Below are positions 5,650 to 46,089 of a stretch of 64,000 nt of DNA, piece after piece (the stretch's first letter is position 1; each line of letters starts with the position of its first letter). The translations under genes and the position numbers were made by a program. A model generated the notes under the pieces. The model had not been told where the DNA came from. It searched no databases and saw only the letters and a program-made list of their open reading frames with translations. Origin of the DNA: Candidatus Iainarchaeum sp. (GTDB taxonomy: Archaea > Iainarchaeota > Iainarchaeia > Iainarchaeales > JAZDFD01). The stretch is from NCBI GenBank assembly GCA_043808155.1, contig JAZDFD010000012.1, positions 23,822 through 87,821 on the forward strand. The letters are read 5' to 3'.

Positions 5650-5830
5650 ATTAACAAATTTCAGGGGTTGGCAAGGGGATGAAATCCAAAGTTCCATTAA
5701 AAAATTTCAGGGTTTGAAAAGGGACAGAGTCCCTATCCGGCGCTCCGGATGTGAGCATATGTGCCCTATCTTCGATAGGGCGGTAATTTACATTAACAAA
5801 TTTCAGGGTATGAAAAGGGACAGAGTCCCT
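5650..5830. repeat. Three direct repeats ATTAA(C/A)AAATTTCAGGG with interspersed hairpins
   Basis: Copies start at 5650, 5696 and 5792; copies 2 and 3 extend to ...TGAAAAGGGACAGAGTCCCT; hairpins at 5735-5750 and 5763-5781. Confidence 0.85.
5757..5787 (-). repeat. ATTAYCG-hairpin-CACRTAT element, copy A
   Basis: Minus strand ATTACCG CCCTATC GAA GATAGGG CACATAT. Confidence 0.75.
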
Positions 5831-5901
5831 TTCAGGCGAAGGAGTTGGGTATTTGAGAAAGTTGGCAAAGAGGTGGGGGTTGGGAGTTAAAAAGAAGTAA
5901 C

Positions 5902-6393
5902 TCATGACTTTGCCAAATACAGTACTTTTCTGCCAGACTGAACTTTTCTCAAATACCCTTCCTTATATAATTTATTTAAGCGCTGTGATGCTGCATTAGT
6001 TCCTTTGTAGCCTAATGCAGACTTTATATCTTTTGCTTCTACTGAGCCATTTTCCTGAACAAGATTAATAATCATCTGATCCTGCTCAGGTAACACTTCA
6101 ACTAATTCTCTATTCTCTGCCACCCCGTTCTTCTTCTTTTTTACTTCCTCTTTTCTTAGGTGGAAGTTTATTTCATCTAATTTTTCACCAATTTGCTCCA
6201 TTATTTTATTGGTTTGTTCCCGTTCCTGTGCCAGTTTGTACATCAGAACCGAGAGAAACGCAGGATTCTTGCTAAGTTCCATGATTTCCTGTAAATCAAG
6301 GCTTAAACCCTCGATTTTGGGATTTATCTTGTTAATTAGCTCTTCCTGACGCATTGTGTCATGAATATCCAGTGAAGTGTCATGATTTTTCAT
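5902..6393 (-). CDS. Coiled-coil plus C-terminal winged-helix DNA-binding protein
   Basis: C-terminus LPEQDQMIINLV...AASQRLNKLYKEGYLRKVQSGRKVLY fits a wHTH. Confidence 0.7.
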   Translation of the reverse strand: MKNHDTSLDIHDTMRQEELINKINPKIEGLSLDLQEIMELSKNPAFLSVLMYKLAQEREQTNKIMEQIGEKLDEINFHLRKEEVKKKKNGVAENRELVEVLPEQDQMIINLVQENGSVEAKDIKSALGYKGTNAASQRLNKLYKEGYLRKVQSGRKVLYLAKS

Positions 6394-6416
6394 AGCATAT
6401 CATGATAGTGTCATGA
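6356..6416. promoter_or_regulatory. Phased (GTG)TCATGA repeats overlapping the start and promoter of the wHTH gene
   Basis: TCATGA at 6359, 6380, 6400 and 6411, next to the TATA-like run at 6417-6426. Confidence 0.55.
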
Positions 6417-6520
6417 TATATATAAAGCTTTCGTGTTTGGAGGCTTTGCACATAAAGGGATTAGAAATTCGGGATTTGAACACCCCCTTTTTGTGCAAAA
6501 AGAAAAAACGAATAGTTAAT

Positions 6521-6763
6521 CTACTTAGGTCTCTTTGGAGGGGGTAATGCTTTATGATGTGGCTTAAATTCATGAACATTTTGTATTCGGTACGTATGAA
6601 GTTTGCTTCTTAAAGCATTAAATTCTTCTAACATTTCTTTTGTCTCTTTTGAATTTGGGTCTTTTATCAGCCTGTGACTGAGTTGAACATCAAGCAAACT
6701 TAAGGCAGATAAACTGTTTACCCATTTCCTATAACTTGTAATCTCTTGCATGAATAACATCAA
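6521..6763 (-). CDS. Hypothetical protein, possibly a 5'-truncated remnant
   Basis: Frame stays open upstream to 6850, abutting the stop codon of the VIT1 gene. Confidence 0.35.
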   Translation of the reverse strand: MMLFMQEITSYRKWVNSLSALSLLDVQLSHRLIKDPNSKETKEMLEEFNALRSKLHTYRIQNVHEFKPHHKALPPPKRPK

Positions 6764-6850
6764 TCTCTTTTCTTCTAAAAAAAGGTTTCGGAAACCACAT
6801 TTTATTCTTTTGGAACGCCTTAAATGTGCAGAATATAGTTTATGTGCATA

Positions 6851-7327
6851 TTAAACAAACGTTCCCGCAATCCACATTCCTACGCAATTTGCTATGAAAA
6901 CAACAACTAATGCAAGAGAAATATGCTCTGCAATAACGTGGAGTGTGCTTGTTTTATGGTCTTTTGAAATATAGTAGCTCAAAACACTAAGAATTAACAA
7001 ACCCCAAACCACACTAACAATAACTGCAGTTCCCAAGTCAAACAAGAACACAGGCACTGCGAAGGTTAAAGCACAGAAAAATTTGAAAAGAAATGTTGAA
7101 ATTGTAGAAGTCCAGATTTCCTTTTGCGTATGCTTATTTTCTGATTCTTCAGAAATATGAATTCCAAACGCATCTGAAAATGCATCTGCAATTGCAATCA
7201 TTATTATTCCGCCAAGAACAATAACTGTTGAATTAGTGCTTGCACTAAGTCCGACTAATAATCCAAGTGTGGTTATAACTCCGGAAGTTAAACCAAAACA
7301 TAAACCCACTTTAACAGAATGTTCCAT
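6851..7327 (-). CDS. VIT1/CCC1-family Fe/Mn transporter-like membrane protein
   Basis: FGLTSGVITTLG and IADAFSDAFGIHISEESE; several TM helices. Confidence 0.8.
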   Translation of the reverse strand: MEHSVKVGLCFGLTSGVITTLGLLVGLSASTNSTVIVLGGIIMIAIADAFSDAFGIHISEESENKHTQKEIWTSTISTFLFKFFCALTFAVPVFLFDLGTAVIVSVVWGLLILSVLSYYISKDHKTSTLHVIAEHISLALVVVFIANCVGMWIAGTFV

Positions 7328-7379
7328 CAGATATAAGAAACTCTAACTAATATTTTAAACTTACGCATTTTCATAAGTT

Positions 7380-7886
7380 TCACTTAAAACTAATTTCTGT
7401 TTTCTTTCCGTTAATTTCAGAAATTATTGTCTCAACTGTTTTTTTATCTGCAGGCAATCGATGTTCATCTGCTTTTGGAATAAAAAGTAGAGTCTCTTCC
7501 GTCCCTGGTTTGAATACTTTGTTCATTCCCAAAACCCTAACATTACCAAGAACATTCTGCACATTGTCTTTTTCAGAATTAGTATGTTCAACAATTCTTA
7601 TTTTTTTACCAAAATCTTTTGAAAGCGATTTTACAATTTCCCCGCCTTTGCCAATCAATGCACCAACATTCCCTTTGCAAACAATAAGAATGAATTCCCC
7701 AGCTTCATAAGCTTTAACAAATTCAGTGTCTTTAAGCACCAAGGTTTTTTCCATATCCTGAAGTTTCCTCAGAACTTTCAAATCAGTTTCACTGACCAAA
7801 CCCTGTTTTATTTTTGCATTGCACAATGCACAGAAACTGTTATTTTTCAATTCTTCATTACAGAGCGGACTTTTCATTTTTATCAC
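7380..7886 (-). CDS. NusA-like KH-domain RNA-binding protein with N-terminal Cys cluster
   Basis: KH motif GALIGKGG...KKIRIVE; N-terminal C..CxxC. Confidence 0.8.
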   Translation of the reverse strand: MIKMKSPLCNEELKNNSFCALCNAKIKQGLVSETDLKVLRKLQDMEKTLVLKDTEFVKAYEAGEFILIVCKGNVGALIGKGGEIVKSLSKDFGKKIRIVEHTNSEKDNVQNVLGNVRVLGMNKVFKPGTEETLLFIPKADEHRLPADKKTVETIISEINGKKTEISFK

Positions 7887-8000
7887 TAACTGAGTTCAAT
7901 CCCAATATATTATGATAGAAAAAGATTAACAGGGGGTACTATTGCAATCTGATATCTAAAATCTGCTAAAAATAAAAAGAAAAAAGTGAAATAAAAAATT

Positions 8001-8285
8001 TCACCTTGCTAATTTAATCTCAATTGCTGAGACTTTTAAAGGACTCCCATCTTCAATAGGGATTTCCTCTGTTGAAATTGAAATATTTGCAATCTTTGCA
8101 TCTGTTATGAATTTGTTTCTTACGATCTCTGCTACGTCTACTGCTCTGCTGATTGCTTTGCCTCTTGCTTTGATGTAAACTTCATTTGAACCCTTGTTAT
8201 TCATCTGGGTTACGACTGCAAGGACATAACTCATTGTACCTTTCTTTCCAACGAAAACTGCATTTTCTTCTGCCATTTTGTGCAC
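8001..8285 (-). CDS. albA: DNA/RNA-binding protein Alba
   Basis: [40 protein letters not shown]; likely start 8276. Confidence 0.95.
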
Positions 8286-8294
8286 CTCCAGGGA

Positions 8295-8510
8295 TCACTT
8301 AATAATAGTTTCTGCATTATTTTCTGTTTTTACAAGTATTGCATTTTTTGGACAGGCATTGTAACATAGTTTACAATCAATGCATAATGACTGTTTTTCA
8401 GGATGAACGCTTACGCGTCCCTGTGTCATAATGAATAATTCCAATGGGCAAGCATGCACACAGATTCCGCAGTGCGTACACTCTCCTAAATCATGGAATA
8501 TTTCAGTCAC
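8295..8510 (-). CDS. 2[4Fe-4S] ferredoxin
   Basis: Two CxxCxxCxxxCP motifs. Confidence 0.9.
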   Translation of the reverse strand: MTEIFHDLGECTHCGICVHACPLELFIMTQGRVSVHPEKQSLCIDCKLCYNACPKNAILVKTENNAETIIK

Positions 8511-8614
8511 AATACCCCCCTATGATTGCTGTAAATATAGCTCTGGAAATGATATTTAATACTTATGGTTAAGCTCAAATAAAAAAGAAAATAAGGAAAT
8601 AAGCCCTAATTGGC

Positions 8615-9466
8615 TTATCTCAGATATTCTAAAGTGTTTTCAAATACACCGCGTGTTTTACCAGGGTCGTAATTGAAGTAAATGCTTTTTCCCACAATCT
8701 GAGTTCTTTCAACAATTGCAGGGAAGTAACGCGGAGTTGCAACATCCTGAATAGATGCTATGATTTTACCTGTTGGTGTAACATCAAATGTTTCAAGTAA
8801 TAATGGTGCGTCATTTGGCTGTGCAGGAATTCTGTCAATCCCTTCCATTATTTTATGGTCAAAGTCCTGCTTGTAAATTACACCGTGTACTGAGTATTTT
8901 ACTGTACAACTTGGAACACTATTTTCAAGTGGTCCGCACTCAACAGGAATTGCATCCCCAAATGTTGCTTTCCATCCCACAACATCTTTTGCAGGATTGC
9001 CTAAACCAACTTCTCTGTAAATTCCAGAATCCATTACAGTAATTAATTTTCCGCCCTTATTGACATAGCTTTCAATTGCTTCACCAAGCTGTCTTGAAAC
9101 TGCTTTATTTGAATTGTATGCCTGATAAAGCATTACTACATCATACTGAGCTAATTGTTCGTCTGGACTTATATTTAATGCAGACGAACTTTTGACATAG
9201 TACTTGACAAGATCTCTGTCCTGATCAAGAATTATCTGCAGGTCTGCACTAGGTGAACCAATAATTAACATTTGCATTGGGTCATTCCCATCAAAGCCTG
9301 GAAGAAATCCTAAGTCTATGAAATTAAATTTGTGTGCCAAGAAAGCCACAATAATTATTATAAGAATCAAAGGAATGAGGCCTTCGAGATTTGATGTTAG
9401 TTTTGATTTTAAGCTACCGCCCATATTCATTGGTTCAGCTGCTCCTCCACCATTATCAGGATACAT
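8615..9466 (-). CDS. Membrane-anchored protein with glutamine-amidotransferase-like alpha/beta domain
   Basis: N-terminal TM; LAQYDVVML and IESYVNKGGKLI; paralogous to 9608-10543. Confidence 0.55.
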   Translation of the reverse strand: MYPDNGGGAAEPMNMGGSLKSKLTSNLEGLIPLILIIIIVAFLAHKFNFIDLGFLPGFDGNDPMQMLIIGSPSADLQIILDQDRDLVKYYVKSSSALNISPDEQLAQYDVVMLYQAYNSNKAVSRQLGEAIESYVNKGGKLITVMDSGIYREVGLGNPAKDVVGWKATFGDAIPVECGPLENSVPSCTVKYSVHGVIYKQDFDHKIMEGIDRIPAQPNDAPLLLETFDVTPTGKIIASIQDVATPRYFPAIVERTQIVGKSIYFNYDPGKTRGVFENTLEYLR

Positions 9467-9607
9467 TTTTTCTTACCTCGCTAATTTTTTATAATATATT
9501 TGAATATATTATACTTTGTGCCTGCCCTAATTTAAATACGTTTCGGGCAGTTTTGAGTTTATAAAGCGTTTTCTAGTTTAAAAACCTTTCCGTGAGATTA
9601 ATTGGAT

Positions 9608-10543: not shown

Positions 10544-10634
10544 TTTGACACCAATAACAATCTTTATATTCCTTCCCCTATTTATTAGATTTATATAAAC
10601 GAACTATATTAAAGTTCTCTTTTTTGGTGATATA

Positions 10635-10811
10635 ATGGTTAAATTAAGAAAAGGTCCTGGCGTCTCAAGCCCAAGTTCATCTTTGGGGATTATGAGATTC
10701 TTTGATGCAGACACAAAAGGACCCAAAATGTCCCCTGAGTTTGTGATTGCATTATCTTTAGGACTCATTTTAGTAGTTCTCGCAGCAAGATACTTTTTGG
10801 GATTGAATTAA
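10635..10811 (+). CDS. secG: Preprotein translocase subunit Sec61-beta
   Basis: Manual translation MVKLRKGPGVSSPSSSLGIMRFFDADTKGPKMSPEFVIALSLGLILVVLAARYFLGLN; GGTGA SD upstream. Confidence 0.88.
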   Translation: MVKLRKGPGVSSPSSSLGIMRFFDADTKGPKMSPEFVIALSLGLILVVLAARYFLGLN

Positions 10812-10814
10812 GAT

Positions 10815-13658
10815 TCACTTCTTAATCTCAATGTAAAAAGACCTTTCAAGAACTTTCTGCAGTTCACCCTGTTTTTCTGAAATTTTTGTGTTTGTTTCTT
10901 TTTCAATTAGGGTTTTCCATTTTTTCAAAAACATAGAGTCATCACTCCCTAAAAACAAATCAATTGTGTCATTAGGATTGAGTTTTTCTTCTTTTCTCAT
11001 TGACTGAATTCTTCTTACGAGTTCTCTGAATTCCCATTCTTGCTTCAATTCAGAATCTGCATCAATATTCAATACAAATTTAATTCCTGAAGCTTCACCT
11101 TCTGCATAATTTCCTGAAACACTTTCATGAACTCTGATTTTTTTCACATTAACCATGCTTGCAAGAACATGTTTCAGATTTGGAAATATGTCTTCTTTTG
11201 AAAGCACAACTAATTCTTTAAGCGGCCATCTCAGTCTCATTTTATGTTCTTCACGCAATGAAAGTGCACTTTGTGAAATTTCTCTTACTAAATTCATTTC
11301 TTTTTCCAGACTTTCATCTTTCAGTGCATCAAATGCTTTTGGAAAGGGAAGCATGTGAACTGATTCTGGAGACTTAGCTTTCTTCAAATACTGATAAATA
11401 TATTCTGAAATATGCGGAGTAACTGGTGCAAGGATTTTCATAAGTGTCTTAACAACAACACTCATTACTTTGCTTGCTTCTTCTCCGGTTTCAGTTCCAA
11501 TTCTGCCCCTTACTAATTTAATGTAAGTTCTGCTGAAATCTTCCAGAACAAAATCAGAAACTAATTTTGGAACTTTAAAATAAACATATGTTTCAAATGC
11601 ATTGTCACATTCTTCAACCAATGAATTTAACCTGCTCAAAATCCACTTATCTTCTGCCTGCAATTTTTTCATATTAACTTTTGCATCTAAATCCAAATTC
11701 ATGTAAAGTGCTGCAAAATTCATTGAGTTCCAGAAAATATTAAAGAATCTTGAAATGTCTTTGTAAATTTCCCAGTCAAAACCAAAGTCTTCCCCTCTTG
11801 AAGCCATTGTTAAATGGAATCGTAAATAATCTCTGTTGTGTTTTTCAAAAACTTCTGAAGGCTGAACATTGTTCCCTAAACTTTTACTCATTTTTTTCTT
11901 ATCTAAATCAGTAACCATTCCGTGAACCATGATATTTTTGAATGGTTTTTCATCAAATGAAATCACTGAATTTAATAACTCCGCATTCCACCATCCGCGT
12001 ACCTGCTCAGTTGCTTCAATGTTCAAATCAGCAGGCCAGTATTTTTTGAAAAGCTTGTCCCCTTTAGAATAATCCAATGCACCCCAGCTTGAAATCCCCG
12101 CATCAAACCAAACATCTAATGTTTCTTTAACGCGTGTCATAGTCCCTCCGCATTTGCAGGGAATTGTAATTTCATCAATGAAAGGTTTGTGCAATTCTAA
12201 ATCTTTAGGAACTTTTGTCTTCTCTTTAAGCTCTTTTAGCGAACCAATAACAACCTGTTCTCCGCACTCACAAATCCAGATTGGGCACGGCGCACCCCAA
12301 TATCTTTCACGCGTAACTGGCCAGTCATTCAAAGTATCTAACCAGTCATGCATTCTGTCTTCCATCCAGCTTGGTACCCAGTTAACTTCCTGATTCAAAT
12401 CAACTGCTTTTTTCTGGATGCTTTCAACTTTCAAAAACCACTGAGGAATTGAAACCATCAGTAACGGACTTTTACAACGCCAGCAAATTGGGTAATCATG
12501 TGTATAAGGATGTTTGTAAATTAAGTTTCCTGATTCTTCTAAATCAGAAACAATTTCTTTATCAACTTCTCTTGCTTTCTTTCCTGCATATTTTCCAGTT
12601 TCTTCTGTTAACTCACCGTTAATTTTCACAGGGCAGTACGCTGGCAAACCTGTTTCTCTGCCAACTGTAAAATCTTCTTTACCATGTCCTGGTGCAGTAT
12701 GAACCAAACCAGTTCCGTCTTCAACATTAACAAATCTTGCACTTAACACAACTCTGTTCGCATTTTCAAATTCAGGACGCTTCATGTGTTTTTCTAATGG
12801 GTTTTCATATCTCCAGCCTTCCAATTCTTTTCCTGGAAATTCTCTTTTCACAACATAACCTGCTTCTATTGCTTCCATTAATTTCTGCAGTAATTCTTTT
12901 GCCATAATCCATGTTTCACCCATCACTTCAACTTCAACATATGTTTCAGTCGGGTGAACCATCACACCTGTGTTGCCTGGTAGCGTCCACGGAGTAGTAG
13001 TCCAAATCAATAAGAAGGTTTTTTCTTTTCCCATAACCGGAAATTTAAAATAAATTGAATTATCTGTTTGTTTTGTATATTCAATCTCATTATATGCAAC
13101 TGCAGTTGCACATCTCGGACAAACATGAACAGGATATGTCCCTTTGTATAACAAACCTTTTTCCTCTGCTTTTTTAAAAGTCCACCAGATTGATTCTATA
13201 TATTCATTATTAAGTGTCAAATATGGATTTTCCCAGTCCATCCAGACTCCCAAATCTGCAAACTCATCATTCATTGTGCCAATGAATTTTGTTGCATACT
13301 CCCTGCACTTTTCAACAAACTTTCCAACGCCGTAATTTTCAATATCGTGTTTTCCTCTAAATCCTAATTCTTTTTCAACCTGAAATTCAATTGGCATTCC
13401 ATGGCAATCATAACCTGGTCTGTCAAACACGTCACGACCGTTCATTCTCCAGTATCTGATTGCAACATCCTTCAGAATTTTATTTAATGCAGTTCCCATG
13501 TGAATGTGACCTGTTGCATACGGCGGGCCGTCCATGAAATAAAAAGTTTTTTCAGCACTGTCATTCATGTGCCTGACTTTATTTGCAATGTCATGTTTAT
13601 CCCAGAAGTCTTTCACTTCTTTTTCCTTTTCCTTATTGTATGCTTCTAATGTTTTCAT
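10815..13658 (-). CDS. ileS: Isoleucyl-tRNA synthetase (archaeal type)
   Basis: DGPPYATGHIHMGT, WTTTPWTLP, GTGLVHTAPGHG, KMSKS. Confidence 0.96.
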   Translation of the reverse strand: MKTLEAYNKEKEKEVKDFWDKHDIANKVRHMNDSAEKTFYFMDGPPYATGHIHMGTALNKILKDVAIRYWRMNGRDVFDRPGYDCHGMPIEFQVEKELGFRGKHDIENYGVGKFVEKCREYATKFIGTMNDEFADLGVWMDWENPYLTLNNEYIESIWWTFKKAEEKGLLYKGTYPVHVCPRCATAVAYNEIEYTKQTDNSIYFKFPVMGKEKTFLLIWTTTPWTLPGNTGVMVHPTETYVEVEVMGETWIMAKELLQKLMEAIEAGYVVKREFPGKELEGWRYENPLEKHMKRPEFENANRVVLSARFVNVEDGTGLVHTAPGHGKEDFTVGRETGLPAYCPVKINGELTEETGKYAGKKAREVDKEIVSDLEESGNLIYKHPYTHDYPICWRCKSPLLMVSIPQWFLKVESIQKKAVDLNQEVNWVPSWMEDRMHDWLDTLNDWPVTRERYWGAPCPIWICECGEQVVIGSLKELKEKTKVPKDLELHKPFIDEITIPCKCGGTMTRVKETLDVWFDAGISSWGALDYSKGDKLFKKYWPADLNIEATEQVRGWWNAELLNSVISFDEKPFKNIMVHGMVTDLDKKKMSKSLGNNVQPSEVFEKHNRDYLRFHLTMASRGEDFGFDWEIYKDISRFFNIFWNSMNFAALYMNLDLDAKVNMKKLQAEDKWILSRLNSLVEECDNAFETYVYFKVPKLVSDFVLEDFSRTYIKLVRGRIGTETGEEASKVMSVVVKTLMKILAPVTPHISEYIYQYLKKAKSPESVHMLPFPKAFDALKDESLEKEMNLVREISQSALSLREEHKMRLRWPLKELVVLSKEDIFPNLKHVLASMVNVKKIRVHESVSGNYAEGEASGIKFVLNIDADSELKQEWEFRELVRRIQSMRKEEKLNPNDTIDLFLGSDDSMFLKKWKTLIEKETNTKISEKQGELQKVLERSFYIEIKK

Positions 13659-13672
13659 TCTATCACTCTCAT

Positions 13673-13703
13673 ATTACCGCAGGGTTGAAAACCCTGCACA
13701 TAT
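13673..13703 (+). repeat. ATTAYCG-hairpin-CACRTAT element, copy B
   Basis: ATTACCG CAGGGTT GAA AACCCTG CACATAT. Confidence 0.75.
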
Positions 13704-13729
13704 TGCGGACCATCCGTACGCAATTGGAT

Positions 13730-13803
13730 TGGGCATGGGAGGATTTGAACCCCCGACCCTTGGTGTATAAGACCAATGCTCTGCCAGACTAAGCTACATG
13801 CCC
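13730..13803 (-). tRNA. tRNA-Ile (anticodon UAU), intronless, CCA not encoded
   Basis: Cloverleaf: acceptor GGGCATG/CATGCCC, D stem GCTT/GAGC, anticodon stem TTGGT/ACCAA with loop CT-TAT-AC, T loop TTCAAAT, discriminator A. Confidence 0.93.
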
Positions 13804-13891
13804 ACAAGGCCACAACCTTGAATTGCAACCCATACTCACTTTGTTCATATGGGTTTTGCTCACTTCGTTTGCACACGCTCCTCGAGTGCGA

Positions 13892-13930
13892 ATACGTGCG
13901 ATATTTCGCTTTGCTCAATATCGCGGTAAT
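13892..13930 (-). repeat. ATTAYCG-hairpin-CACRTAT element, copy C
   Basis: Minus strand ATTACCG CGATATT GAGCAAAGCGA AATATCG CACGTAT. Confidence 0.75.
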
Positions 13931-14095
13931 ATTCCTATAACCCGAGCTTAAAGCGCAATTAAAATTAGAATTAGAAATATGTTTAAATAGATGATTAATC
14001 TGTTTCCGGGTGAATCCGCTGCCCGAGTATTTGATAACACCTTCTGGTAGTCATGAATTATTCCTTCTATGAATGGTTTTTAAAGCTAACCATGT

Positions 14096-14635: not shown

Positions 14636-14802
14636 TTTCTCACTTTATAAAAAAGCCCACACATCCTTTTATACTTTCTGGACAGGGGACTGCCCCCTTG
14701 TTACGCTATTTCACTAAAGTGAAATGCGCCTATTTCAACTTTGTTGAAATCGGGACCCCTGAAATTGTTACTCAATAAAAAGAATAAAAAAGAAAAAGGA
14801 AT

Positions 14803-14842
14803 ATTACCGAGACATTGAGCAAAACGAAAATGTCTCACATAT
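14803..14842 (+). repeat. ATTAYCG-hairpin-CACRTAT element, copy D
   Basis: ATTACCG AGACATT GAGCAAAACGAA AATGTCT CACATAT. Confidence 0.75.
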
Positions 14843-14870
14843 CTCGGTACGTCCGGTCGAAAACGGACGG

Positions 14871-16523
14871 TTACATCATTGGAGGCATTCCGCCGCCCAT
14901 GCCACCTGACATGTCTGGCATTCTGCCTTTTCCAGTTCCTAAGATGATATCATCAATTCGAAGTATCATTTCAGCAACTTCAGTTGCGGAAGTAACTGCC
15001 TGTGTTTTAACTCTTAAAGGTTCAACAACATTCAGTTTTCTCATGTCTGCATATCCTGCATTGTAAACATCAATACCGATATACTTTCCTTCCTTACCTT
15101 TGTGCTTACTTCTCAAGTTCACAATTGAATCAAGCGGATCCATACCTGCAGTTTCTGCAAGAGTTCTTGGAATTTCTTCCAGTGTATCTGCAAATGCTTC
15201 AACTGCTAATTGTTCTTTTCCGCCAACTGTGCTTGCGTATGCTCTAAGTTTCATTGCAACTTCAACTTCAATTGAACCCCCGCCTGAAACTATTTTTCCT
15301 TCTCTTAATGCAGTGGTTGTTGAACCGATTGCATCTTTCAAAGCTCTTTCAGCTTCATCTACAACGTGTGCTGTTCCGCCGCGTACTAAAACTGAAACTG
15401 CTTTAGGATTTTTGCATCCTTCAACAAAGACCATGTCATCGCCTGAAACTTTATCTTCGTAAACTGATGCTGCGTTTCCCAAATCAGATTTTGTTAAGTC
15501 CTTAATTCTTGAAACAACTTTTGCACCTGTTGCTCTTGCTAATGCATCCATGTCAGATTTCTTAACTCTTCTAACAGCTGCAATTCTTTCTTTTGCTAAG
15601 AAGTGCTGTGCAACATCATCAATTCCTTTCTGGCACATTACAACATTTGCACCTGATGCTTTAATTGTTGCAACCATGTCTCTGAGCATTCTTTCTTCCT
15701 GATCTAAAAATGCCTGTAGCTGTTCAGGTGTTGAAATCTCAACTTTTGTGTCTGTTTCGGGACCCTTGATTTCAAGTGCTGCATCAATTAATGCAATTTT
15801 TGCATTGTTTGTTCTTTTCGGCATTCCGCTGTGAACAAATTCTTTGTCAATAACAATTCCTTTGATGAGTTTGCTGTCTTTCAAAGAGCCACCGCTCTTT
15901 TTCTCAAGCTTTATGTTGTCTGCATCAATGTACATTTTTCCGTTTTCTTCATCTGCAACCATTAAAACTGCGTTAACAACAAGCTCTGATAATTCAGCTG
16001 CTGATTCTGAAGCCTTTCCTGTCATTGAAGTTAATGCAATATTCTTCAGAGTTTTTTTGTCAGTGTATGCAACTTTGTCTGCTGTGTATTCTAAAATTTC
16101 AATTGCTTTTTTTGATGCCATTCTGTAACCCTTTATGATAACACTTGGGTGAATTTCATCATCAAGCAAATTTTCTGCTCTCTTCAGAAGTCCGCCTGCA
16201 AGTACAACTGCAGTTGTTGTTCCGTCACCGCATTCACTGTCCTGTGTTTTTGCAACTTCAACCATCATCTTCCCTACTGGGTGATCAATTGAAATTTCAC
16301 TTAAAATTGTTGCACCATCATTTGTGATTATTACATCACCTAAATCATCAACAATCATTTTGTCCATTCCTTTAGGACCTAGTGTACTTTTCACTGCATT
16401 AGCTACTGCCTTTGCAATCAAAAGATTGATTCTTTGTGCATCTCTGCCTCTGGTTCTTTTTGTGCCGTCTGACATGAAAACCCCAGATTGCTGTTGTTCT
16501 GACATATTATCATTCCTCCACAT
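14871..16523 (-). CDS. ths: Thermosome (group II chaperonin) subunit
   Basis: [26 protein letters not shown]-rich tail. Confidence 0.96.
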
Positions 16524-18239: not shown

Positions 18240-18244
18240 TCCAC

Positions 18245-35877: not shown

Positions 35878-35881
35878 TTAC

Positions 35882-38041: not shown

Positions 38042-38085
38042 ACTCCTTTCTCCACGAAATCTTTTATATTCTCCTGTAGTTATAT

Positions 38086-39864: not shown

Positions 39865-39874
39865 ATGTGATAAA

Positions 39875-42800
39875 ATGAAATCTACAAAACTTTTTGTAAT
39901 TATTTTTTTGTTGGCATTTGGTTACTTTATACCTTTTGTTGCTGCTCTTCCAAGCAACTTTGACTGGAGAAATCACGATGGCTATAATTGGATGACTTCT
40001 GTAAAAAATCAGGGTGATTGCGGTTCCTGTTGGGCTTTTTCTACTGTTGGTTCAGTAGAAGCAGTTTACAATATCCGCAAAAATAATTACAATCTTGATT
40101 TAGATCTAGCCGAAGAAGAAATAGTTTCGGATTGCCTTCTAGATAGCGACTGTTGTGTTGGTTGGATTAGTTCAGCTTTGAATTATATTAAAAATAATGG
40201 AATTACTGATGAAACGCATTTTTCGTATGTTGATAACTCTTGTTCATGTTCCGGTGGTAATTGTACTTGCACATATAGTGGTCCAGACAGATGCAGTAAT
40301 AGGACTTGTGGTGACAAAATTGGGGGTGGACTGAATTATAAAATAAGTAACACGAGTAGTGTTCCCGCATATACCGAAACTATTAAGCAATATCTTATTG
40401 AAAAAGGTCCTCTTTCAGTTTGTATGGGCTGGGGTAACCACGGTGGTTATTGGGATGGAGATATTTATAGATGCACAAATGATGAAGGTACTGACCATTG
40501 TGTAGTTCTGGTTGGTTATAATGCTGATGAGTATTATTGGATTGCTAAAAATAGTTATGGTAGTTCTTGGCAGGATAATGGTTACTTTAAAGTTGGTTAT
40601 GGTGAATGTGATATTGAAAGTTATGCGCGTTATGCGGATGTAATAGGTTGTGGAACCACCATAACCAAAAACACAATTTTAACTGGAGATCTTATAAATT
40701 GTCCAGGTAATGGGATAAATATTGGCGCTAACAATATAACTCTTAATTGTAATAATCTTTTGATTGATGGAGATAACCTCGGATATGATTATGGAATTTT
40801 TCTTGAAGAAAGAGAGGGAGTTACAATTAAGAATTGTAGGATAGAGGAATTTTATAACGGAATCGGACTGTGGTGGGAAAATACTAACCATACTTTGATT
40901 GATAACACTATCAAAAATAACAAATATGGAGTTATTTTTAATGATTGGACAAATAATCATAATAATATTAGAAACAACGAGTTTAATGGAAATACTCAAT
41001 ACGGGGCGTGGCTTCAGGGCGGTGCAGCAGATAACACTTTTTGGAACAACACTTTCACAAACAACGGCGAAAATGCTTATGAATACTCAAACAATAATGA
41101 TTGGGATTATAGCGGAGTAGGAAACTACTGGGATGATTTTTCAAGTAATAGTGGTTATCCCACAGAATATATAATTCCGGGTCCTGGTGATGGTGTTGAC
41201 CATTTTCCTGAAGGTGCGTTACTTCCTCCCGGGGAAATATGCAATTCAGATTCAGAATGTGGCAGCAATTACTGCGAAGGTTCAGTGAGCAATCCTGCAA
41301 GATGTTGCATTTCAGAACCGGCAGGAGATAGCTGGGAAGGCGGAGGAAACAGTCTGGGTTGCGGCACCGACCCAAATGCAAACTATAACGATTATTACTG
41401 TAATGCTAGTGGTAATATACAATCTGAAATAACTGATACCAAAAATTGCGATTCCCAGGATAATTGTAGTGACTATTGCCTTTGGGACTATCAAGACGGA
41501 ACAGATTATTATTTTGATACAAGTTTGGGTGAATGTGTTTCAAAAGCTTATGAATCAGATGATGACGAAGAAAATTGCACTAATTGTATTGGTGAAAGCC
41601 TTTGGAATCTAGGCGGAGAAATAGAGTTGTGTTGCGGAGATGATTCAAGCGAATTCAAAACCACACGCAACTGCGAAGTAGATGCATGCACTTCTGATGC
41701 AACAGATGATGCATGCTGCATTGCAAATACTAGTTGCGTTTACAATTCAGGTTGTTATAATAATGGTTATATTGGTGATGTTGATAGTGATACTGAAAAT
41801 GAAGAATGTGAAAATGGAATTTGGAAATTACAACCACCACAATGCGGAGACACAATAACGGAAGACACAACATTAACTGCAGATCTCTTAAACTGCTCTA
41901 ATGGGGGATTAGGTATTGGTGCAGATAATATAACTTTAGATTGTGATAACCATTTGATTGACGGAACTGGTGAGTTTTCAGGAATTTATTTATATGACAT
42001 AGATACAGTCACTATTAAGAATTGCAACATACAGGAATTTCAAAATGGAATTTTATTATTGTACAAAAGCTCTAGCAATATTTTGCTCGATAATGTTGTT
42101 GAAAATAATGAGTATGGGCTTATAATAAATAATCAAGGTTCCAACAACACAGTAACTGGCAATGATTTTATTGAAAATTCCACTCATGGAATATCTATTG
42201 GTAGCGATTCACAGAATAATACTATTTGGAACAATGATTTCATAGATAACAGTGTTAATGCCTACGAAGACTCATTTTCAAACAACAACAATTGGGATTA
42301 TAGTGAAACAGGAAATTACTGGTCTGATTTTGAAAGCAATGAAGGTTATCCTTATGAGTATGTAATTGCTGGTTCTGGAAATGGAATTGATAATTTCCCA
42401 AACACAAATGAATATGCACATCTTTTATTTCCCGAAAATAACACAACTTTAGGAATGGGTTCGCAGTTCTTTGACTGGACTGATGTTCCCAACGTGACAC
42501 AATATGAATTACATGCAACAAAACCCGATTTAACAGAAGAATCATTAGTTGTTCCAACAAACAGTGAAGTTACTTTTGGTGCAAAATTCTGGAACACAAA
42601 ATTGGAAGATGGTTTATACACTTGGAAGGTAAGGCCAATCTTTGATGGCATTCCTGGAAAATGGTCTGGAGAAAGAAATATTACACGAAAAACAATTCCT
42701 GAACTTTATCTCCCTGAAAATGGTGCAGAACTTGGTTTGGGAGGCCAATATGTAGATTGGGAAGCAATTATTGGCGCAGATGGCTACTACCTTTATGTAG

Positions 42801-42973
42801 TCAGGCCTGAAGGTTTAAAATATAATTTGTACGTGAAAAAAGATGAATTCACGGTTCCAGCATGGTTTTGGGATCCTCTGCCTTTAGGAGAATACACTTG
42901 GAAAGTGCGGACAGTGAACTCAGGTGATTTTGCGCCATATTCTGAAGCTTGGACTTTTACAAAAACAGAATAA
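39875..42973 (+). CDS. Secreted papain-family (C1A) cysteine protease with beta-helix (NosD-like) and Fn3-like domains
   Basis: Signal peptide, LPSNFDWR, QGDCGSCWAF, HCVVLVGY, KNSYG; two Asn-rich beta-helix blocks. Confidence 0.88.
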   Translation: MKSTKLFVIIFLLAFGYFIPFVAALPSNFDWRNHDGYNWMTSVKNQGDCGSCWAFSTVGSVEAVYNIRKNNYNLDLDLAEEEIVSDCLLDSDCCVGWISSALNYIKNNGITDETHFSYVDNSCSCSGGNCTCTYSGPDRCSNRTCGDKIGGGLNYKISNTSSVPAYTETIKQYLIEKGPLSVCMGWGNHGGYWDGDIYRCTNDEGTDHCVVLVGYNADEYYWIAKNSYGSSWQDNGYFKVGYGECDIESYARYADVIGCGTTITKNTILTGDLINCPGNGINIGANNITLNCNNLLIDGDNLGYDYGIFLEEREGVTIKNCRIEEFYNGIGLWWENTNHTLIDNTIKNNKYGVIFNDWTNNHNNIRNNEFNGNTQYGAWLQGGAADNTFWNNTFTNNGENAYEYSNNNDWDYSGVGNYWDDFSSNSGYPTEYIIPGPGDGVDHFPEGALLPPGEICNSDSECGSNYCEGSVSNPARCCISEPAGDSWEGGGNSLGCGTDPNANYNDYYCNASGNIQSEITDTKNCDSQDNCSDYCLWDYQDGTDYYFDTSLGECVSKAYESDDDEENCTNCIGESLWNLGGEIELCCGDDSSEFKTTRNCEVDACTSDATDDACCIANTSCVYNSGCYNNGYIGDVDSDTENEECENGIWKLQPPQCGDTITEDTTLTADLLNCSNGGLGIGADNITLDCDNHLIDGTGEFSGIYLYDIDTVTIKNCNIQEFQNGILLLYKSSSNILLDNVVENNEYGLIINNQGSNNTVTGNDFIENSTHGISIGSDSQNNTIWNNDFIDNSVNAYEDSFSNNNNWDYSETGNYWSDFESNEGYPYEYVIAGSGNGIDNFPNTNEYAHLLFPENNTTLGMGSQFFDWTDVPNVTQYELHATKPDLTEESLVVPTNSEVTFGAKFWNTKLEDGLYTWKVRPIFDGIPGKWSGERNITRKTIPELYLPENGAELGLGGQYVDWEAIIGADGYYLYVVRPEGLKYNLYVKKDEFTVPAWFWDPLPLGEYTWKVRTVNSGDFAPYSEAWTFTKTE

Positions 42974-43068
42974 TTAATGCACATGTTCTTAGTTATCAGA
43001 TTACAAATTAGCAAGAATAAGAAAAAATACTCTCGGACCAACAGTAATTTTTATTAGGGAATAGCTAT

Positions 43069-43683
43069 TCACTTTGATTTAATTTTTTGAAGTAGCTCCT
43101 GCTTTTTCTTTTTCAGTTCTCTTAAATTTAAATCCAAATACTCATGTTCTCTAAAACTGTTCACAATTAAAATTAATCTTTTACGAAAATCCCCTAACTC
43201 AAATTTTTCAGTTAACTCAGAATATTTTCCAAAATTTATTTTGGTTTTCAGCAGTAACTGCATTATATCTACTCTGTCCTTCATCCCCTTTTCACTGTGC
43301 CCTCTTGCCTTTTCCGCGCCCTGCTTTAGTAGAAGTAAAATCTCCGCATCCACTACTTTAAAACCTTCTATTTTTGAAACATAATTTTCTAATTCCTCAA
43401 TTGGAATTGAGAGTTTTGAATAGAAAGGAACATAAATATCCACATCCACTTCATCAACAATTATTTCATACTTTCTCAGTCTGTCATTTTTCTTTAAATC
43501 ATACTCTGTTTTAATTTTTTCCAACTCTTCAAAACCAATCACAATATCTATATCCTTGGATTTTTGTGCATGTGTCCACAAATAAGCTGCCCAGCCACCA
43601 ATTAAAATAAAATCAATCTCTTTATTCAGTTTCTGGAGAAGCTTCCAGCTCTTTTCCGTAATTAAATCATTCCAGTACTGCAT
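43069..43683 (-). CDS. Nucleotidyltransferase (AbiEii-like)
   Basis: LIGGWA...SKDIDI...KDRVDI. Confidence 0.75.
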   Translation of the reverse strand: MQYWNDLITEKSWKLLQKLNKEIDFILIGGWAAYLWTHAQKSKDIDIVIGFEELEKIKTEYDLKKNDRLRKYEIIVDEVDVDIYVPFYSKLSIPIEELENYVSKIEGFKVVDAEILLLLKQGAEKARGHSEKGMKDRVDIMQLLLKTKINFGKYSELTEKFELGDFRKRLILIVNSFREHEYLDLNLRELKKKKQELLQKIKSK

Positions 43684-44281
43684 TTAATCTCACTTCAAAT
43701 TCTTTCAAAAAATCTTTTGCATACCATTGCGGTAGATTCCACAAATCAGCAAAGATATTAGCATCAGTTGCAATTTTACCATCTTTTCCCATCACTGAAT
43801 CCTTACTCAAAACAAACAAATTTGCTGTTTTTTTATTTTCTGGGAACCTTTTTTTAACTTCCTTCAATTCTTCATCAGAAGTATAAATATATACTTCGGA
43901 ATAATCTGCAGGAACTGAGTTAAACTTAAATTTATAGCCAGAATATGCAGTAAAAATAACTCCTGCCGGCATTCTTTTTTCAATCTGCAAAACACTTTCA
44001 TCTACACGTGTTTTATAAATCAAATCCTTTTCCAAATTTCTCACTGATGACCAGTAAAGCAAAATCTTTTTCGCATTCACTACAACAAAATTTCTAGGAT
44101 TCACTTTAATAGCATTCATTCTCTTCAAGGGTTTCAGCGCGTGATTCACCATTGAAAGCGAGAGCCCAAGCTCATTAGAAAGCTCTTTCTGTGTGAAAGA
44201 CTCCGCTTTCTTCTCCAAAACTCTGAAAAGAATTTCCCTGTACACAAATTCAATCTTTTTCATACTTAAATATATGCACAA
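43667..44281 (-). CDS. wHTH protein (AbiEi-like antitoxin)
   Basis: FTQKELSNELGLSLSMVN HTH; IFADLW C-terminus; overlaps the NTase gene. Confidence 0.72.
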   Translation of the reverse strand: MCIYLSMKKIEFVYREILFRVLEKKAESFTQKELSNELGLSLSMVNHALKPLKRMNAIKVNPRNFVVVNAKKILLYWSSVRNLEKDLIYKTRVDESVLQIEKRMPAGVIFTAYSGYKFKFNSVPADYSEVYIYTSDEELKEVKKRFPENKKTANLFVLSKDSVMGKDGKIATDANIFADLWNLPQWYAKDFLKEFEVRLNAVLE

Positions 44282-44464
44282 AATAGTATTTAAATGTTTC
44301 TATATTTGTAGAAATATTTAAAAATAATTAAAATAGCTCATTAAATCCCCGATTTTTTTACCTCTAAAGTGTAATCAGCGAAAACCGCCAATACAAATCC
44401 GCAAGAATAAGAAAAACCACTTTCGGACCAACAGTAATTTTTATTAGGGGCTAATTTTTTACTT

Positions 44465-45016
44465 TTAGTTGCGCTGTCGCTCTGCCTTAATTTTTTGAAT
44501 AATTTTTTCTCTTAATTGTTCTGCTATTTTTTCTAATTCTGAAGCCTGTTGTTTATCCCCCATGAGTTCGCTCATTTTAGCAGCTCTGATGTAAAAATTT
44601 TCAGCTAGTGCAAGTTTCCCTTGTGATTCATAACTTTTTGCGTTTTTTAAATATGTGTTGTGTTTTGCCATAATTTCTTTTTTGTGAGTGTCGTCCATTG
44701 TAATTATTTTTGTGCCACGTCTTTCTATTTCATTTTCAAGTGCTTTTGTTTTTTCAATATTTTGTATTCTGCTTTTAGGTTCATGTTCAGATACAAGTTC
44801 ATCTGTTGCAATTGTCTGAAATCCGCGCAGTTCATTACTTGTCCATGCTTCTTTGTTTGTTTTGGATCTATGAACAGTTTTTCCTGTTGTTGCGAAATAT
44901 TTTGCCTTTTCCATATCGTGCCTGGCTTTTGCCCGTCTTCTTTTTTCCTCCGCGGATACAAATAAATTCCCAAAACCTTCCCTAACTCTTTGAAAAAAAT
45001 TAATTCTTTTAGGCAT
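44465..45016 (-). CDS. Hypothetical helical protein
   Basis: 183 aa ORF with GGAG SD and TPR-like end. Confidence 0.55.
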   Translation of the reverse strand: MPKRINFFQRVREGFGNLFVSAEEKRRRAKARHDMEKAKYFATTGKTVHRSKTNKEAWTSNELRGFQTIATDELVSEHEPKSRIQNIEKTKALENEIERRGTKIITMDDTHKKEIMAKHNTYLKNAKSYESQGKLALAENFYIRAAKMSELMGDKQQASELEKIAEQLREKIIQKIKAERQRN

Positions 45017-45221
45017 TTGATTAACTCCATTAAAATGTTATGTCTGCATAGTTCAATATCTATTATAGCGGTTTAGGGTTTTATATCTTCCCCCATAATC
45101 CCTCCGTATTCATGCTTTTTCGCAAAAATTAAATCGATTTTTAAGAGTAGATTGCGATATTATATTGTATGAAAAAAAGCGATCACTTGGACATATATTG
45201 TCATAAGTCAAAACAGAATAA

Positions 45222-45962
45222 TTAATGCGCATGCCCTGAAGTTCCAATTGCAAAATAAATTATTGCAATTCCCAAAAGCATTGCAATTGACTGCAGAATC
45301 ATTTTTTTCATTTCTCTTTCTTTGTGCAGTTCAGGAATTAAATCTGCAGCTGCAATATAAATGAATCCGCCTGCTGCGAATGCAATCAGCATTGGAATTG
45401 AACCTTCAATTAATGGTGCGAAGAAAAATGTAAGCAATGCACCAAGCACAGCAGTCAGTGCTGAAATAAAATTGTACAGCAATGCTTTTCCTCTGCTCAA
45501 ACCTGCATGCAATAAAACTGCAAAATCACCAATTTCCTGAGGAATTTCGTGCAGTGCAATTGCAAATGCGGATGTAATCCCCAGAGGAATTGAAACCATA
45601 AATGAAGCTGCAATTATAACACCATCAATGAAATTATGCAAACCATCTGCAATCAAATTAATATACGCATAACTGTGAATATGACACTCGTGTGTTAAAC
45701 AATGGTGCCAATGTATGAATTTCTCTGCAAGCATGAAAAAAACAATCCCTGCAAGAACCAACATAAATGCATTATCTACTTCATGAACTGCTTCAGGGAG
45801 CATATGCAAAAATGCAGTTCCCAATAAAGTTCCCGCAGCAAACGCAATCAAAATAAGCAGAAATCTGTTCAGAATATCTTTCTTAATTGAAATTGTAAAA
45901 AGCCCGACCAATGAAATCAGACTAATTATGAAAACACTCGCAAGAATATAAAACAAAACCAT
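45222..45962 (-). CDS. ZIP-family zinc transporter
   Basis: HMLPE, HWHHC loop, DGLHNFIDG, LHEIPQE. Confidence 0.92.
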   Translation of the reverse strand: MVLFYILASVFIISLISLVGLFTISIKKDILNRFLLILIAFAAGTLLGTAFLHMLPEAVHEVDNAFMLVLAGIVFFMLAEKFIHWHHCLTHECHIHSYAYINLIADGLHNFIDGVIIAASFMVSIPLGITSAFAIALHEIPQEIGDFAVLLHAGLSRGKALLYNFISALTAVLGALLTFFFAPLIEGSIPMLIAFAAGGFIYIAAADLIPELHKEREMKKMILQSIAMLLGIAIIYFAIGTSGHAH

Positions 45963-46049
45963 AGTATCAACTGTAAATAGATGAGTTTAAATAATTTGCC
46001 TCAGACAGCAGCCGTCACGTCCGGCGAGTGCGGATTTATTAACAAACAT

Positions 46050-46089
46050 ATTATCGCAGGATTGAGCATAGCGAAAATCCTGCACGTAT
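46050..46089 (+). repeat. ATTAYCG-hairpin-CACRTAT element, copy E
   Basis: ATTATCG CAGGATT GAGCATAGCGAA AATCCTG CACGTAT. Confidence 0.75.

Follow-up and report, generated by a model that had tools for sequence, protein, structure and literature searches.

The window analysed here, a stretch of 64,000 nt, comes from Candidatus Iainarchaeum sp. (G000), a DPANN archaeon with a genome of 1.08 Mb (88% complete, 92% coding). It holds five copies of a dispersed repeat, in which the head ATTAYCG, a 7-bp hairpin, and the box CACRTAT follow one another. The original prediction had described five such copies, and a search with the same pattern returned exactly five matches, agreeing in coordinates, strands, flanks, stems, and loops; 0.01 matches were expected from dinucleotide shuffles of the window, and five were reached in 0 of 100 shuffles. 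The stems (CCCTATC, CAGGGTT, CGATATT, AGACATT, and CAGGATT) are all perfectly paired, and the loops are either GAA or GAGCAWARCGA(A). This core was correctly delimited, but the element itself is larger. The full repeat covers ∼60–70 nt and consists of an outer helix, an internal loop, the covarying stem, and a second covarying hairpin (hairpin 2). In the outer helix, of 4 bp, the 2 nt before ATTAYCG and its first 2 nt pair with the last four of CACRTAT; the internal loop is conserved and asymmetric, with TACYG opposite C-AC; the main stem is variable, has 7–8 bp, and is capped by GAA or by a mini-hairpin flanked by GA/GAA. After a linker of 8 nt comes hairpin 2, also variable, a fold predicted for nearly all of the genome's 38 copies. 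The head is present in all aligned copies, with the second box 3′ of the stem, and the repeat is a small non-coding element.

Copy 1 (5735..5791, minus strand, from outer helix to hairpin 2; model match C12:29570-29612) belongs to subfamily C and is built of 4 nt of outer helix, ATTACCG, the 7-bp stem with a GAA loop, CACATAT, and the hairpin 2 ATCCGG-AGCG-CCGGAT. Directly 5′ of it lies module M (5791..5829, minus strand), a hairpin GGGAC-TCT-GTCCC plus CCCTGAAATTTGTTAATG, which recurs at further loci and 3′ of copy 1 (5648..5733, minus strand, with a second M at 5695-5733 and a third, partial one at 5648-5689). Because M is a recurrent module, the apparent flanking duplication of copy 1 corresponds to M modules and not to a clean target duplication. 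Copy 2 (13669..13728, plus strand; pattern and model match) abuts, with the foot of its hairpin 2, the 3′ terminal nucleotide of the opposite-strand gene for tRNA-Ile(UAU) (anticodon TAT; 13729..13804, minus strand), while 14 nt separate its 5′ end from the start codon of a class I aminoacyl-tRNA synthetase gene. The tRNA-Ile gene thus has copy 2 on its 3′ side, in convergent orientation, and on its 5′ side copy 3 (13870..13934, minus strand), which has the subfamily B tail TCGCAC plus a hairpin and lies 87 nt upstream in the same direction. The structured leader of this tRNA (13805..13869, minus strand) shows a hairpin ACCCATA..TATGGGT with an E-like GA..GAG loop and a second hairpin; its CAAGG-TTGTGG-CCTTG hairpin abuts tRNA position +1, and the leader of tRNA-Glu(CTC) has the same architecture. 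Copy 4 (14799..14868, plus strand) runs antisense to the gene for the thermosome; 2 nt separate the end of its hairpin 2 from the stop codon of that gene (14871-14873). Copy 5 (46046..46115, plus strand) is an ATTATCG/CACGTAT variant with the hairpin 2 AACCG-TACGAAAT-CGGTT. Converging on it from the opposite strand is a related composite element (46135..46192, minus strand), made of GCGAACGAAGTGAGCAT, a GTGCTACCGAAGGTGCAC hairpin, TCGCAC, and a TCGCCG-GGCGTT-CGGCGA hairpin. The region that the original prediction had called iteron-like (45998..46032, plus strand) is a GCCTCAGACAGC motif with the reverse complement of a TCGCCG..CGGC-type hairpin, a unit repeated at 46119-46156 and, in part, at 46205-46220.

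A structure-selected family had been proposed, and covariation bore this out. In an alignment of 78 copies (71 distinct) from 13 genomes, gathered with a model that takes the stem into account and thereby favours pairing, the 7-bp stem was 99.3% paired, all seven of its pairs showed changes on both sides, and its covariation score was reached in 0 of 500 shuffles. When the outer helix, closing pair, main stem, and mini-helix were taken together, 90.3% of 955 cells were paired, against 68.8% in shuffled data, and 12 of the 15 pairs changed on both sides. The strict pattern, with no stem required, matched 17 sites in G000, of which 16 had intact stems and one a stem shifted by 1 nt, and no decayed copies were found among them; this absence fits selection in place as well as recent spread.

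The expectation of further copies was also confirmed, as a covariance-model scan of G000 gave 38 copies at E<=1e-4 and 42 at E<=1. Among the other Iainarchaeales genomes, the family was present in 17 of 150 at E<=1e-4, with 1–11 matches each and a patchy distribution across the families of the order; the complete genome G015 has five near-identical copies. The copies are intergenic, occur in both orientations, and form mosaics with other modules. Subfamilies have identical modules in common, and dozens of related modules, in addition to the ∼38 copies, lie around tRNA, rRNA, and ribosomal-protein genes. With regard to novelty, an Rfam scan of the window matched only the tRNA, 20 of 26 loci with copies, scanned permissively, gave just tRNAs and two chance matches, and literature searches found no description of a small-repeat family in this phylum.

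Eighteen of the 38 copies lie within 100 nt of tRNA genes or inside them, whereas such positions make up 8.9% of the non-coding bases (p about 8e-10). Four copies are in tRNA introns, and eight lie against tRNA 3′ ends. The foot of hairpin 2 is 0–1 nt from the terminal nucleotide of the tRNA in six of the eight convergent copies and at the splice junction in all four intron copies; such exact abutment could reflect a processing role. In addition, GC-rich structured leaders composed of related modules, in which a hairpin abuts +1, precede about 18 of the 45 tRNAs. Together with the strong covariation and the lack of decayed copies, these positions favour a non-mobile, host-functional cis-RNA module, that is, processing, stability, or translation signals that would have grown in number by ordinary duplication. 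We regard this as unlikely. The orientation relative to transcription varies, being sense in operons, antisense in 8/8 copies at tRNA 3′ ends, and antisense in 3/4 of the intron copies, which occur in both orientations; carriers make up just 17 of the 150 genomes of the order; and since RNase P RNA is present, the tRNA leaders need no special system.

The ribosomal-protein operon bears on the same question. Its junctions with a copy (L23/L2, S3/L29, L32e/L19e, and L19e/L18) measure 91–116 nt, in contrast to almost all copy-free junctions, which measure 12 nt or less (a putative 150-nt gap before L22 being left out). Seven operon copies end 0–1 nt before a GGTG-type Shine-Dalgarno site, as a cis-RNA module would predict. 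However, conservation of copies at orthologous positions was not seen in relatives. The S3/L29 junction, expanded with a copy in G000, spans −4 to +21 nt in relatives and is compact in 5/5, a comparison of filled and empty sites of the kind that the original prediction had asked for; at the thermosome site, no copy was found in 80+80 related loci, the covariance model having been run on the first 80. True presence/absence polymorphism was not seen because the relatives compared include no close one.

Duplicated flanks were found at a minority of copies. A flank duplication score of at least 12 was obtained for 9 of the 38 copies, versus 3 of 300 random sites, and in four of these nine the duplicated sequence is locally unique. 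These are 17 nt comprising a Shine-Dalgarno site plus ATG (C31:6404), 19 nt of unique local sequence (C28:56327), 20 nt of a tRNA-Arg 3′ end (C1:46025), and a local sequence that is itself among local repeats (C12:7702); the duplications of window copies 1 and 5 are recurrent modules and are not clean. The duplications are of variable length (7–35 nt). The downstream duplicate begins, in 11 copies, 22–29 nt after box 2, which corresponds to the hairpin-2 foot, and in some it starts exactly there. The same was observed in other genomes, with a duplicated stretch of 33–35 nt from a gene end (L027) and, in several of them, tandem flank-element-flank-element-flank arrays (L028, L029, L138, and L135). 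With their expanded operon junctions, flank duplications, and tandem arrays, the copies look inserted; for a cis-RNA module the duplications and arrays are a further difficulty, because they require an insertion or recombination step.

The precision of one end raises another explanation, a SINE-like, RNA-mediated spread in which a reverse-strand RNA would be freed from pre-tRNA by RNase Z or the splicing endonuclease and recopied into DNA, with target duplications of variable length. The 5′ end of the released RNA would accordingly be the hairpin-2 foot, and this end is indeed precise behind tRNAs and introns and in dispersed copies, while the opposite end has a variable, A/T-rich junction, duplications differ in length, and the sense of the released RNA would be that of the tRNA at 8/8 tRNA 3′ ends. 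Even so, we find this route quite improbable: RVT_1 had two matches in G018, the only carrier with any of those searched, and was absent from G000 (88% complete), the complete G015, G012, and G024; no consistent T-run follows the tRNA-adjacent copies; and copies adjacent to C/D sRNA genes, as well as some adjacent to tRNAs, are in the opposite orientation.

The copies might instead be independent small RNA genes of ∼65 nt, with their own promoter and terminator, acting in trans. In G076 and G085 they share a ∼30-nt 5′ extension with a TATA-like TTTATAG ∼28 nt before ATTACCG, and end in hairpin 2 and a T-run. The conserved single-stranded boxes could bind protein or RNA, and box 1 with the first stem bases is complementary to 9–11 nt of the organism's own 16S rRNA. 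In G000, however, no promoter-like motif occurs at a fixed distance, and box 1 is unlike the TTTAAAWA found around −33 in the tRNA promoters of this genome. Most G000 copies are without a T-run and inside operons or introns, and all thirty-eight paralogues, their boxes being identical, would have to act on a single target, so that we consider such genes a distinctly unlikely explanation. Guide RNAs were considered separately. C/D-box sRNAs are recognised by their C and D boxes and H/ACA RNAs by a guide pocket with ACA 14–16 nt from the pocket top; neither C nor D boxes were found in the element, and its flanks are conserved, unlike variable guides, so both classes were rejected.

Profile searches with Y1_Tnp, RVT_1, and DDE_Tnp_1 revealed no candidate enzyme common to the carriers, and those with the most copies have neither a Y1/HUH transposase nor a reverse transcriptase nor a DDE transposase. 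Y1_Tnp (PF01797) was absent from G000, the complete G015, G018, and G012, with one gene in G024, and DDE_Tnp_1 had no match in G000 or G018. G000 has two TnpB genes, whose flanks show no element-like ends. The box ATTAYCG presumably resembles the nick-site nonamer of CRESS viruses and geminiviruses, but it lies 5′ of the stem, not in the hairpin loop as the nonamer does; for CRESS-type Rep, Gemini_AL1 gave no match, and neither did Viral_Rep, whose control matched no genome either. The original prediction had linked the repeats to HUH nucleases, and an ssDNA element of the REP/RAYT or IS200/IS605 type, which an HUH (Y1) nuclease would read, is suggested by the conserved head 5′ of a variable palindrome, the extragenic mosaics, the hairpin at each end, and the single Y1_Tnp gene of G024. 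This link did not hold up and is very unlikely, given that Y1_Tnp is missing from the host and from three of the four other carriers searched, one of them a complete genome, and that copy orientation follows the tRNA and not a chromosome-wide strand. Moreover, by the definition of REPs in PMC2817692 the palindrome is directly preceded by GT(A/G)G, where this family has ATTAYCG; with no RAYT (Y1_Tnp-type) gene in G000, where one between two inverted REPs would be expected, REP/RAYT membership was rejected. An IS200/IS605-derived element, which a Y1 TnpA would insert beside a fixed target of 4–5 nt and without target duplication, was likewise rejected, on the flank duplications, the lack of Y1_Tnp in G000, and the TnpB loci; the statement in PMC2817692 is that this family does not make larger target duplications, and duplications were seen here.

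On balance, we think it somewhat more likely than not that the family consists of REP/BIME- or MITE-like, structure-constrained, non-autonomous elements that are part of a wider modular hairpin superfamily. Structural constraint, multiplicity, patchy distribution, filled versus compact junctions, flank duplications, and tRNA association were all shown. In a genome that is 92% coding, few sites are permissive, and the elements would have entered these by insertion or duplication: the 3′ ends and introns of tRNA genes, junctions between cistrons, and spacers downstream of small RNA genes. The local flank would sometimes have been duplicated in the process. Staggered breaks of variable spacing, with precise joining at the hairpin-2 end, could produce this pattern, driven by a trans-acting, structure-reading enzyme encoded elsewhere or by a host process. 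To the host, some copies may have become useful, for instance as hairpins in leaders or trailers that lie flush against tRNA ends. There is also a small but appreciable chance that DPANN archaea harbour here a new class of mobile hairpin elements that are independent of a transposase or directed by RNA ends; the hairpin-2 foot would then be joined exactly at positions matching the ends of processed RNAs, namely the 3′ ends of tRNAs and small RNAs and the splice sites of tRNAs, with tRNA-processing enzymes defining the element ends and long, variable duplications being made.

DPANN genomes are regarded as streamlined, and one of this type here carries ∼38 structured copies around tRNA, rRNA, and ribosomal-protein genes. 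If mobile, this would be the phylum's first described small-repeat family, and its spread without a recognisable transposase would point to a novel structure-reading enzyme or an RNA-linked route. The family offers a concrete case of sequence being gained at the ends of tRNAs and inside their introns, with a bearing on the spread of archaeal tRNA introns; should the joining be RNA-end-directed, the family would show in action how archaeal tRNAs acquire introns as well as structured leaders and trailers. If functional instead, the copies would represent a lineage-specific layer of RNA processing.

Among known systems, the bacterial REP/BIME sequences (REPINs), which have RAYT transposases, are described in PMC2817692 in similar terms: these palindromes are short and lie outside genes, they have a conserved head, compensatory changes preserve their stems, and they are placed between cistrons or at 3′ positions, in either orientation, and in mosaic arrays with other short motifs. 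The REP-like character originally predicted stands in this respect, with 38 extragenic copies and compensatory changes in 7/7 stem pairs, but not with respect to the head and the RAYT gene. The Iainarchaeales family further differs in its second box after the stem, its two hairpins, its flank duplications, its strong link to tRNA ends and introns, and its archaeal host. With MITEs it shares small size, lack of coding content, multiple copies, restriction to a lineage, apparent insertion with duplicated flanks, and a link to small RNA genes; for the MITE-like C/D-box sRNA element of Pyrobaculum calidifontis, the account in PMC6009581 likewise identifies no transposase. The repeat differs from MITEs in having neither C nor D boxes and no terminal inverted repeats, none being found by eye at copy ends in G000 and other genomes, and its duplications are long and variable rather than fixed and short; on these grounds, and with no cognate insertion sequence, DDE_Tnp_1 having no match in G000 or G018, a DDE-type MITE was rejected.

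Eukaryotic tRNA-targeting retroelements and SINEs use tRNA genes as safe landing sites in compact genomes, produce variable target duplications, and have one precise and one variable end. The family described here differs in that it is ∼65 nt long, RVT_1 is absent from most of the carriers searched, and neither a poly(A) tail nor an internal promoter was shown. The double-hairpin elements and GC clusters of fungal mitochondria consist of two short hairpins rich in GC, in genomes that are compact and AT-rich, and occupy spacers, introns, and places beside RNA genes; their mobility was inferred from comparisons, and to our knowledge no enzyme is known for them. Judged from this general description, they resemble our family in the two-hairpin build and the choice of spacer, intron, and RNA-gene sites, while their sequence is unrelated and their host belongs to another domain, and the Iainarchaeales elements have conserved single-stranded boxes and an exact abutment to the ends of tRNAs.

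All five copies of the repeat named in the original prediction lie in the window where it had placed them, and their pattern gives 5 matches there against 0.01 expected, a number that 0 of 100 shuffles reach. Further copies elsewhere in the genome, which that prediction had left to be looked for, do exist: covariance model R1, built from 26 copies, finds 38 in the genome of the window (G000; a 1.08-Mb assembly of 35 contigs, 35% GC and 88% complete, in which the window belongs to contig C12) when copies are counted at E ≤ 1e-4. A strict pattern applied to this genome without any stem requirement gave 17 matches, in 16 of which the stem is intact and in one shifted by 1 nt. The proposed novelty also holds with respect to Rfam, as a scan of the window matched tRNA alone and a permissive scan of 20 copy-bearing loci added nothing beyond tRNA. 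The pattern used on the viral_contigs and genome_contigs collections had too few fixed bases, and the covariance model accepts 0 of its 93 matches there (13 in the former and, among the matches listed, 80 loci in the latter).

Beyond G000, 150 genomes from the order were scanned with the model, and 17 of them have matches (1–11 each, E ≤ 1e-4), scattered over 8 of about 31 families; a looser earlier search (E ≤ 0.001) had given 4 of 30 genomes. In a phylum-wide sample, 14 of 150 genomes had matches, every one within the same order, figures to be read with the loss of sensitivity with distance that follows from training the model on G000.

The element is a double hairpin of about 60–70 nt. Pairing was evaluated over 78 rows (71 distinct, 13 genomes), which were gathered with a stem-aware model. 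Of 955 cells in total, 90.3% are paired; shuffles give 68.8%, and sliding the partners gives 27–50%. The two bases preceding box 1 (ATTAYCG) and its first two form an outer helix with the last four of box 2 (CACRTAT; 96.5% paired), whose outermost pair is mostly A-U (55 rows), with U-A in nine rows and G-C in one. Inside this helix lies an internal loop with TACY as its 5′ strand and AC as its 3′ strand, followed by a closing G-C pair (95.8%) and the 7-bp stem (99.3%), where both sides change in 7 of 7 pairs. The stem cap is either GAA or GA, a 2-bp covarying mini-helix (79% paired) with a triloop, and GA(A). Hairpin 2, of at least four sequence types, begins 8 bases past box 2, and a long variant with three hairpins past box 2 is found, with compensatory changes, in one G000 copy and two copies of genome G012. 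Of the 38 copies, 22 have their lower minimum free energy on the forward strand (p = 0.095, not significant), and among wobble-compatible cells there are 16 G·T on the forward strand against 19 A·C overall (10 against 3 in the core stem). Neither measure tells the strands apart.

The copies are strongly associated with tRNA genes, of which the genome has 45: 18 of the 38 are inside them or within 100 nt, against 8.9% of non-coding bases. Eight converge on a tRNA 3′ end, with 25–27 nt from box 2 to the tRNA, and in six of these the foot of hairpin 2 is 0–1 nt from the last base of the tRNA. Four copies, three antisense and one sense, are within tRNA introns, and in all four the end of hairpin 2 adjoins the splice junction; another lies in the rRNA spacer, behind tRNA-Ala. 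That hairpin 2 joins tRNA ends and splice sites so precisely possibly reflects a target preference, as the adjoining sequence tends to begin with (T)GG or GGTG; a mechanism linked to RNA ends, or later co-option of the elements as processing hairpins, is also possible. Unusually long tRNA introns of 68–169 nt are predicted by ARAGORN at C1:10370-10612, C6:43557-43752, C26:56259-56428 and C26:73758-73930, and the 169-nt intron of tRNA-Trp holds no copy. Box 1 with the first stem bases (TATTACCGC, in some copies followed by GG) is complementary to 9–11 nt of the 16S rRNA of this genome (C26:82465-82500), which could be a chance match.

Four further copies are in the ribosomal-protein operon, at the junctions L23|L2, S3|L29, L32e|L19e and L19e|L18, all sense to the operon and each stopping just short of the next Shine-Dalgarno site. 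Within the window, copy 2 (13669–13728, plus strand) abuts tRNA-Ile(UAU), and 14 nt separate it from the start codon of a gene for a class I aminoacyl-tRNA synthetase, while copy 3 (13870–13934, minus) lies upstream of the same tRNA. The synthetase gene lies about 70 nt downstream of the tRNA and runs in the same direction (13658–13804); copy 2 occupies this entire spacer, which leaves only the interior of the element or the region before the tRNA for the synthetase promoter. Copy 4 (14799–14868, plus) is antisense to the thermosome gene and lies 28 nt past its stop codon, and copies 1 (5735–5791, minus) and 5 (46046–46115, plus) are within clusters of related modules. For 27 of the 38 copies, orientation is that of the local gene majority, with exceptions mostly among copies linked to tRNA or rRNA genes, so that strand choice follows the neighbouring gene and not the chromosome. 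A replication-strand bias was ruled out: GC skew goes with the coding strand, and it is tRNA-linked copies that form the exceptions.

The element belongs to a wider set of structured modules. For about 18 of the 45 tRNA genes, the 5′ leader is long, rich in GC and structured; it is composed of related modules, and a hairpin abuts tRNA position +1 (for example, C35:18270-18330, C26:56200-56258, C26:83590-83641, C34:12150-12213 and window 13805–13869). RNase P RNA is present (C26:89018-89268). In the tRNA genes without such a leader, the upstream region is AT-rich and contains TTTAAAWA near −33. This speaks against box 1 as a TATA box and, judged by the same promoter motif, a promoter role for the element is unlikely. 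The recurrent hairpins include TCGCAC + TCGCCG-GGCGTT-CGGC (16 copies), found again as the tail of an element subfamily, the GTGCTACCGAAGGTGCAC hairpin (14 copies), which has TACCG...CAC in common with the element, and CNAGG-6 nt-CCTNG (11 copies). TCGCCG-type and AGCTCAAGGATTGAACCT hairpins also occur at about 59458–59500 of the window (minus strand; C12:83279-83320), far from any tRNA called by ARAGORN. Another module, a GGGGAC-TCY-GTCCCC hairpin followed by a short linker and CCCTGAAATTTGTTAATAGAA, is often directly 5′ of an element copy and also occurs in tandem (window 5648–5733 and 5791–5829, minus strand; C7:19440-19530, C23:50780-50890, C1:28195-28235 and C26:87040-87080); a loose motif scan gave 18 matches, of which about nine look real.

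In the ribosomal-protein operon of G000 almost all copy-free junctions are at most 12 nt, with the exception of one putative 150-nt gap before L22, and the four copy-bearing junctions measure 91–116 nt; S3|L29 spans −4 to +21 nt in five of five relatives. There is no copy behind the thermosome gene in 80 related genome loci. Thermosome relatives assign the organism to Iainarchaeota/Diapherotrites (DPANN). The closest thermosome loci in genome_contigs and metagenome_contigs belong to Candidatus Iainarchaeum MAGs at 73–74% protein identity and, as no relative is closer than 74%, the comparison is one of distant relatives and not of true polymorphism. For a comparison of empty and filled sites, contigs from four DNA runs lacked the length and similarity needed.

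The flanks themselves carry traces of duplication. In nine of the 38 G000 copies the upstream flank recurs just downstream (score ≥12), against 3 of 300 random sites. One of the nine reflects neighbouring paralogous tRNA-Pro genes, four come from tandem arrays or further recurrent modules, among them window copies 1 and 5, and four are unique local sequence, although one of these, C12:7702, sits among local repeats. Among weaker cases, a Shine-Dalgarno site with its start codon is duplicated at three more junctions. The downstream duplicate begins 22–29 nt past box 2, at the hairpin-2 foot, in 11 copies, and the upstream one stops 0–26 nt short of box 1, usually after A-rich filler. In other genomes, 11 of 38 copies reach the same score of 12, several owing to tandem arrays; at locus L027, a gene end of 33–35 nt with its stop codon is duplicated around one copy, and four loci (L028, L029, L138 and L135) hold flank-element-flank-element-flank arrays. 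In L029, L135 and L136 (genomes G018, G073 and G099) the element lies just behind a C/D-box sRNA gene, whose 3′ end is the flank that is duplicated. This looks like the same gene at all three, with a GATGATGA box near the start and GGGCGGACTGA then a closing stem at the 3′ end. Behind a G000 tRNA-Asp (C28:16964-17090), the last 11 nt of the tRNA occur three times, with a GTGCTGCCGAAGGTGCAC-type element in each of the two gaps; this array of the same layout is the product of a sister family. Genome G015, which is complete and AR10-like, has five near-identical copies (L033–L036) that share a strand and fall within about 173 kb. They are nested behind older copies that are truncated, and CGTAAACGGA of a previous hairpin 2 precedes each new one.

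Taken together, the best fit is a family of REP/BIME- or MITE-like elements that are non-autonomous and constrained in structure. Elements would have entered permissive sites, insertion may sometimes have duplicated the flank, and unequal exchange between duplicated flanks could have amplified them locally. A purely functional element that does not move ranks lower, because the copies are of mixed orientation, lack orthologous conservation and show these duplications.

The HUH-type enzyme suggested in the original prediction fared less well. Y1_Tnp has one match in genome G024 and is absent from G000, G018, G012 and G015; as the enzyme is missing where the copies are youngest, the reading in which a HUH nuclease acts on the hairpins ranks lowest. 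RVT_1 is absent from G000, G015, G012 and G024 and has two matches in G018, DDE_Tnp_1 is absent from G000 and G018, Gemini_AL1 gave no match, and Viral_Rep gave none either, with a control equally silent. Phage_integrase detects a Xer-like gene in every genome tested and is hence uninformative. A link to TnpB was ruled out, as the two G000 genes are far from any copy and their flanks are not element-like; both TnpB-like genes are intact (429 and 414 aa; C23:25545-25742 and C7:9042-9236), and no TnpA was detected in the assembly. A composite transposon was rejected as well, because the two 179-aa ORFs that each lie between inverted copies are unrelated proteins, one S15-like by eye (a ribosomal protein) and the other AAA_17 kinase-like.

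Mitochondrial double-hairpin elements are one system with which the REP/BIME- or MITE-like family can be compared. The literature searched held no description of such elements in this phylum; in one search, the 12 best-ranked of 1,900 papers lacked the phylum names. The term HhcRNA does not occur in PMC3491384. The REP/RAYT features used for comparison are those given in PMC2817692, and a MITE-like C/D-sRNA element from Pyrobaculum calidifontis (PMC6009581) is the nearest archaeal precedent in the literature read.
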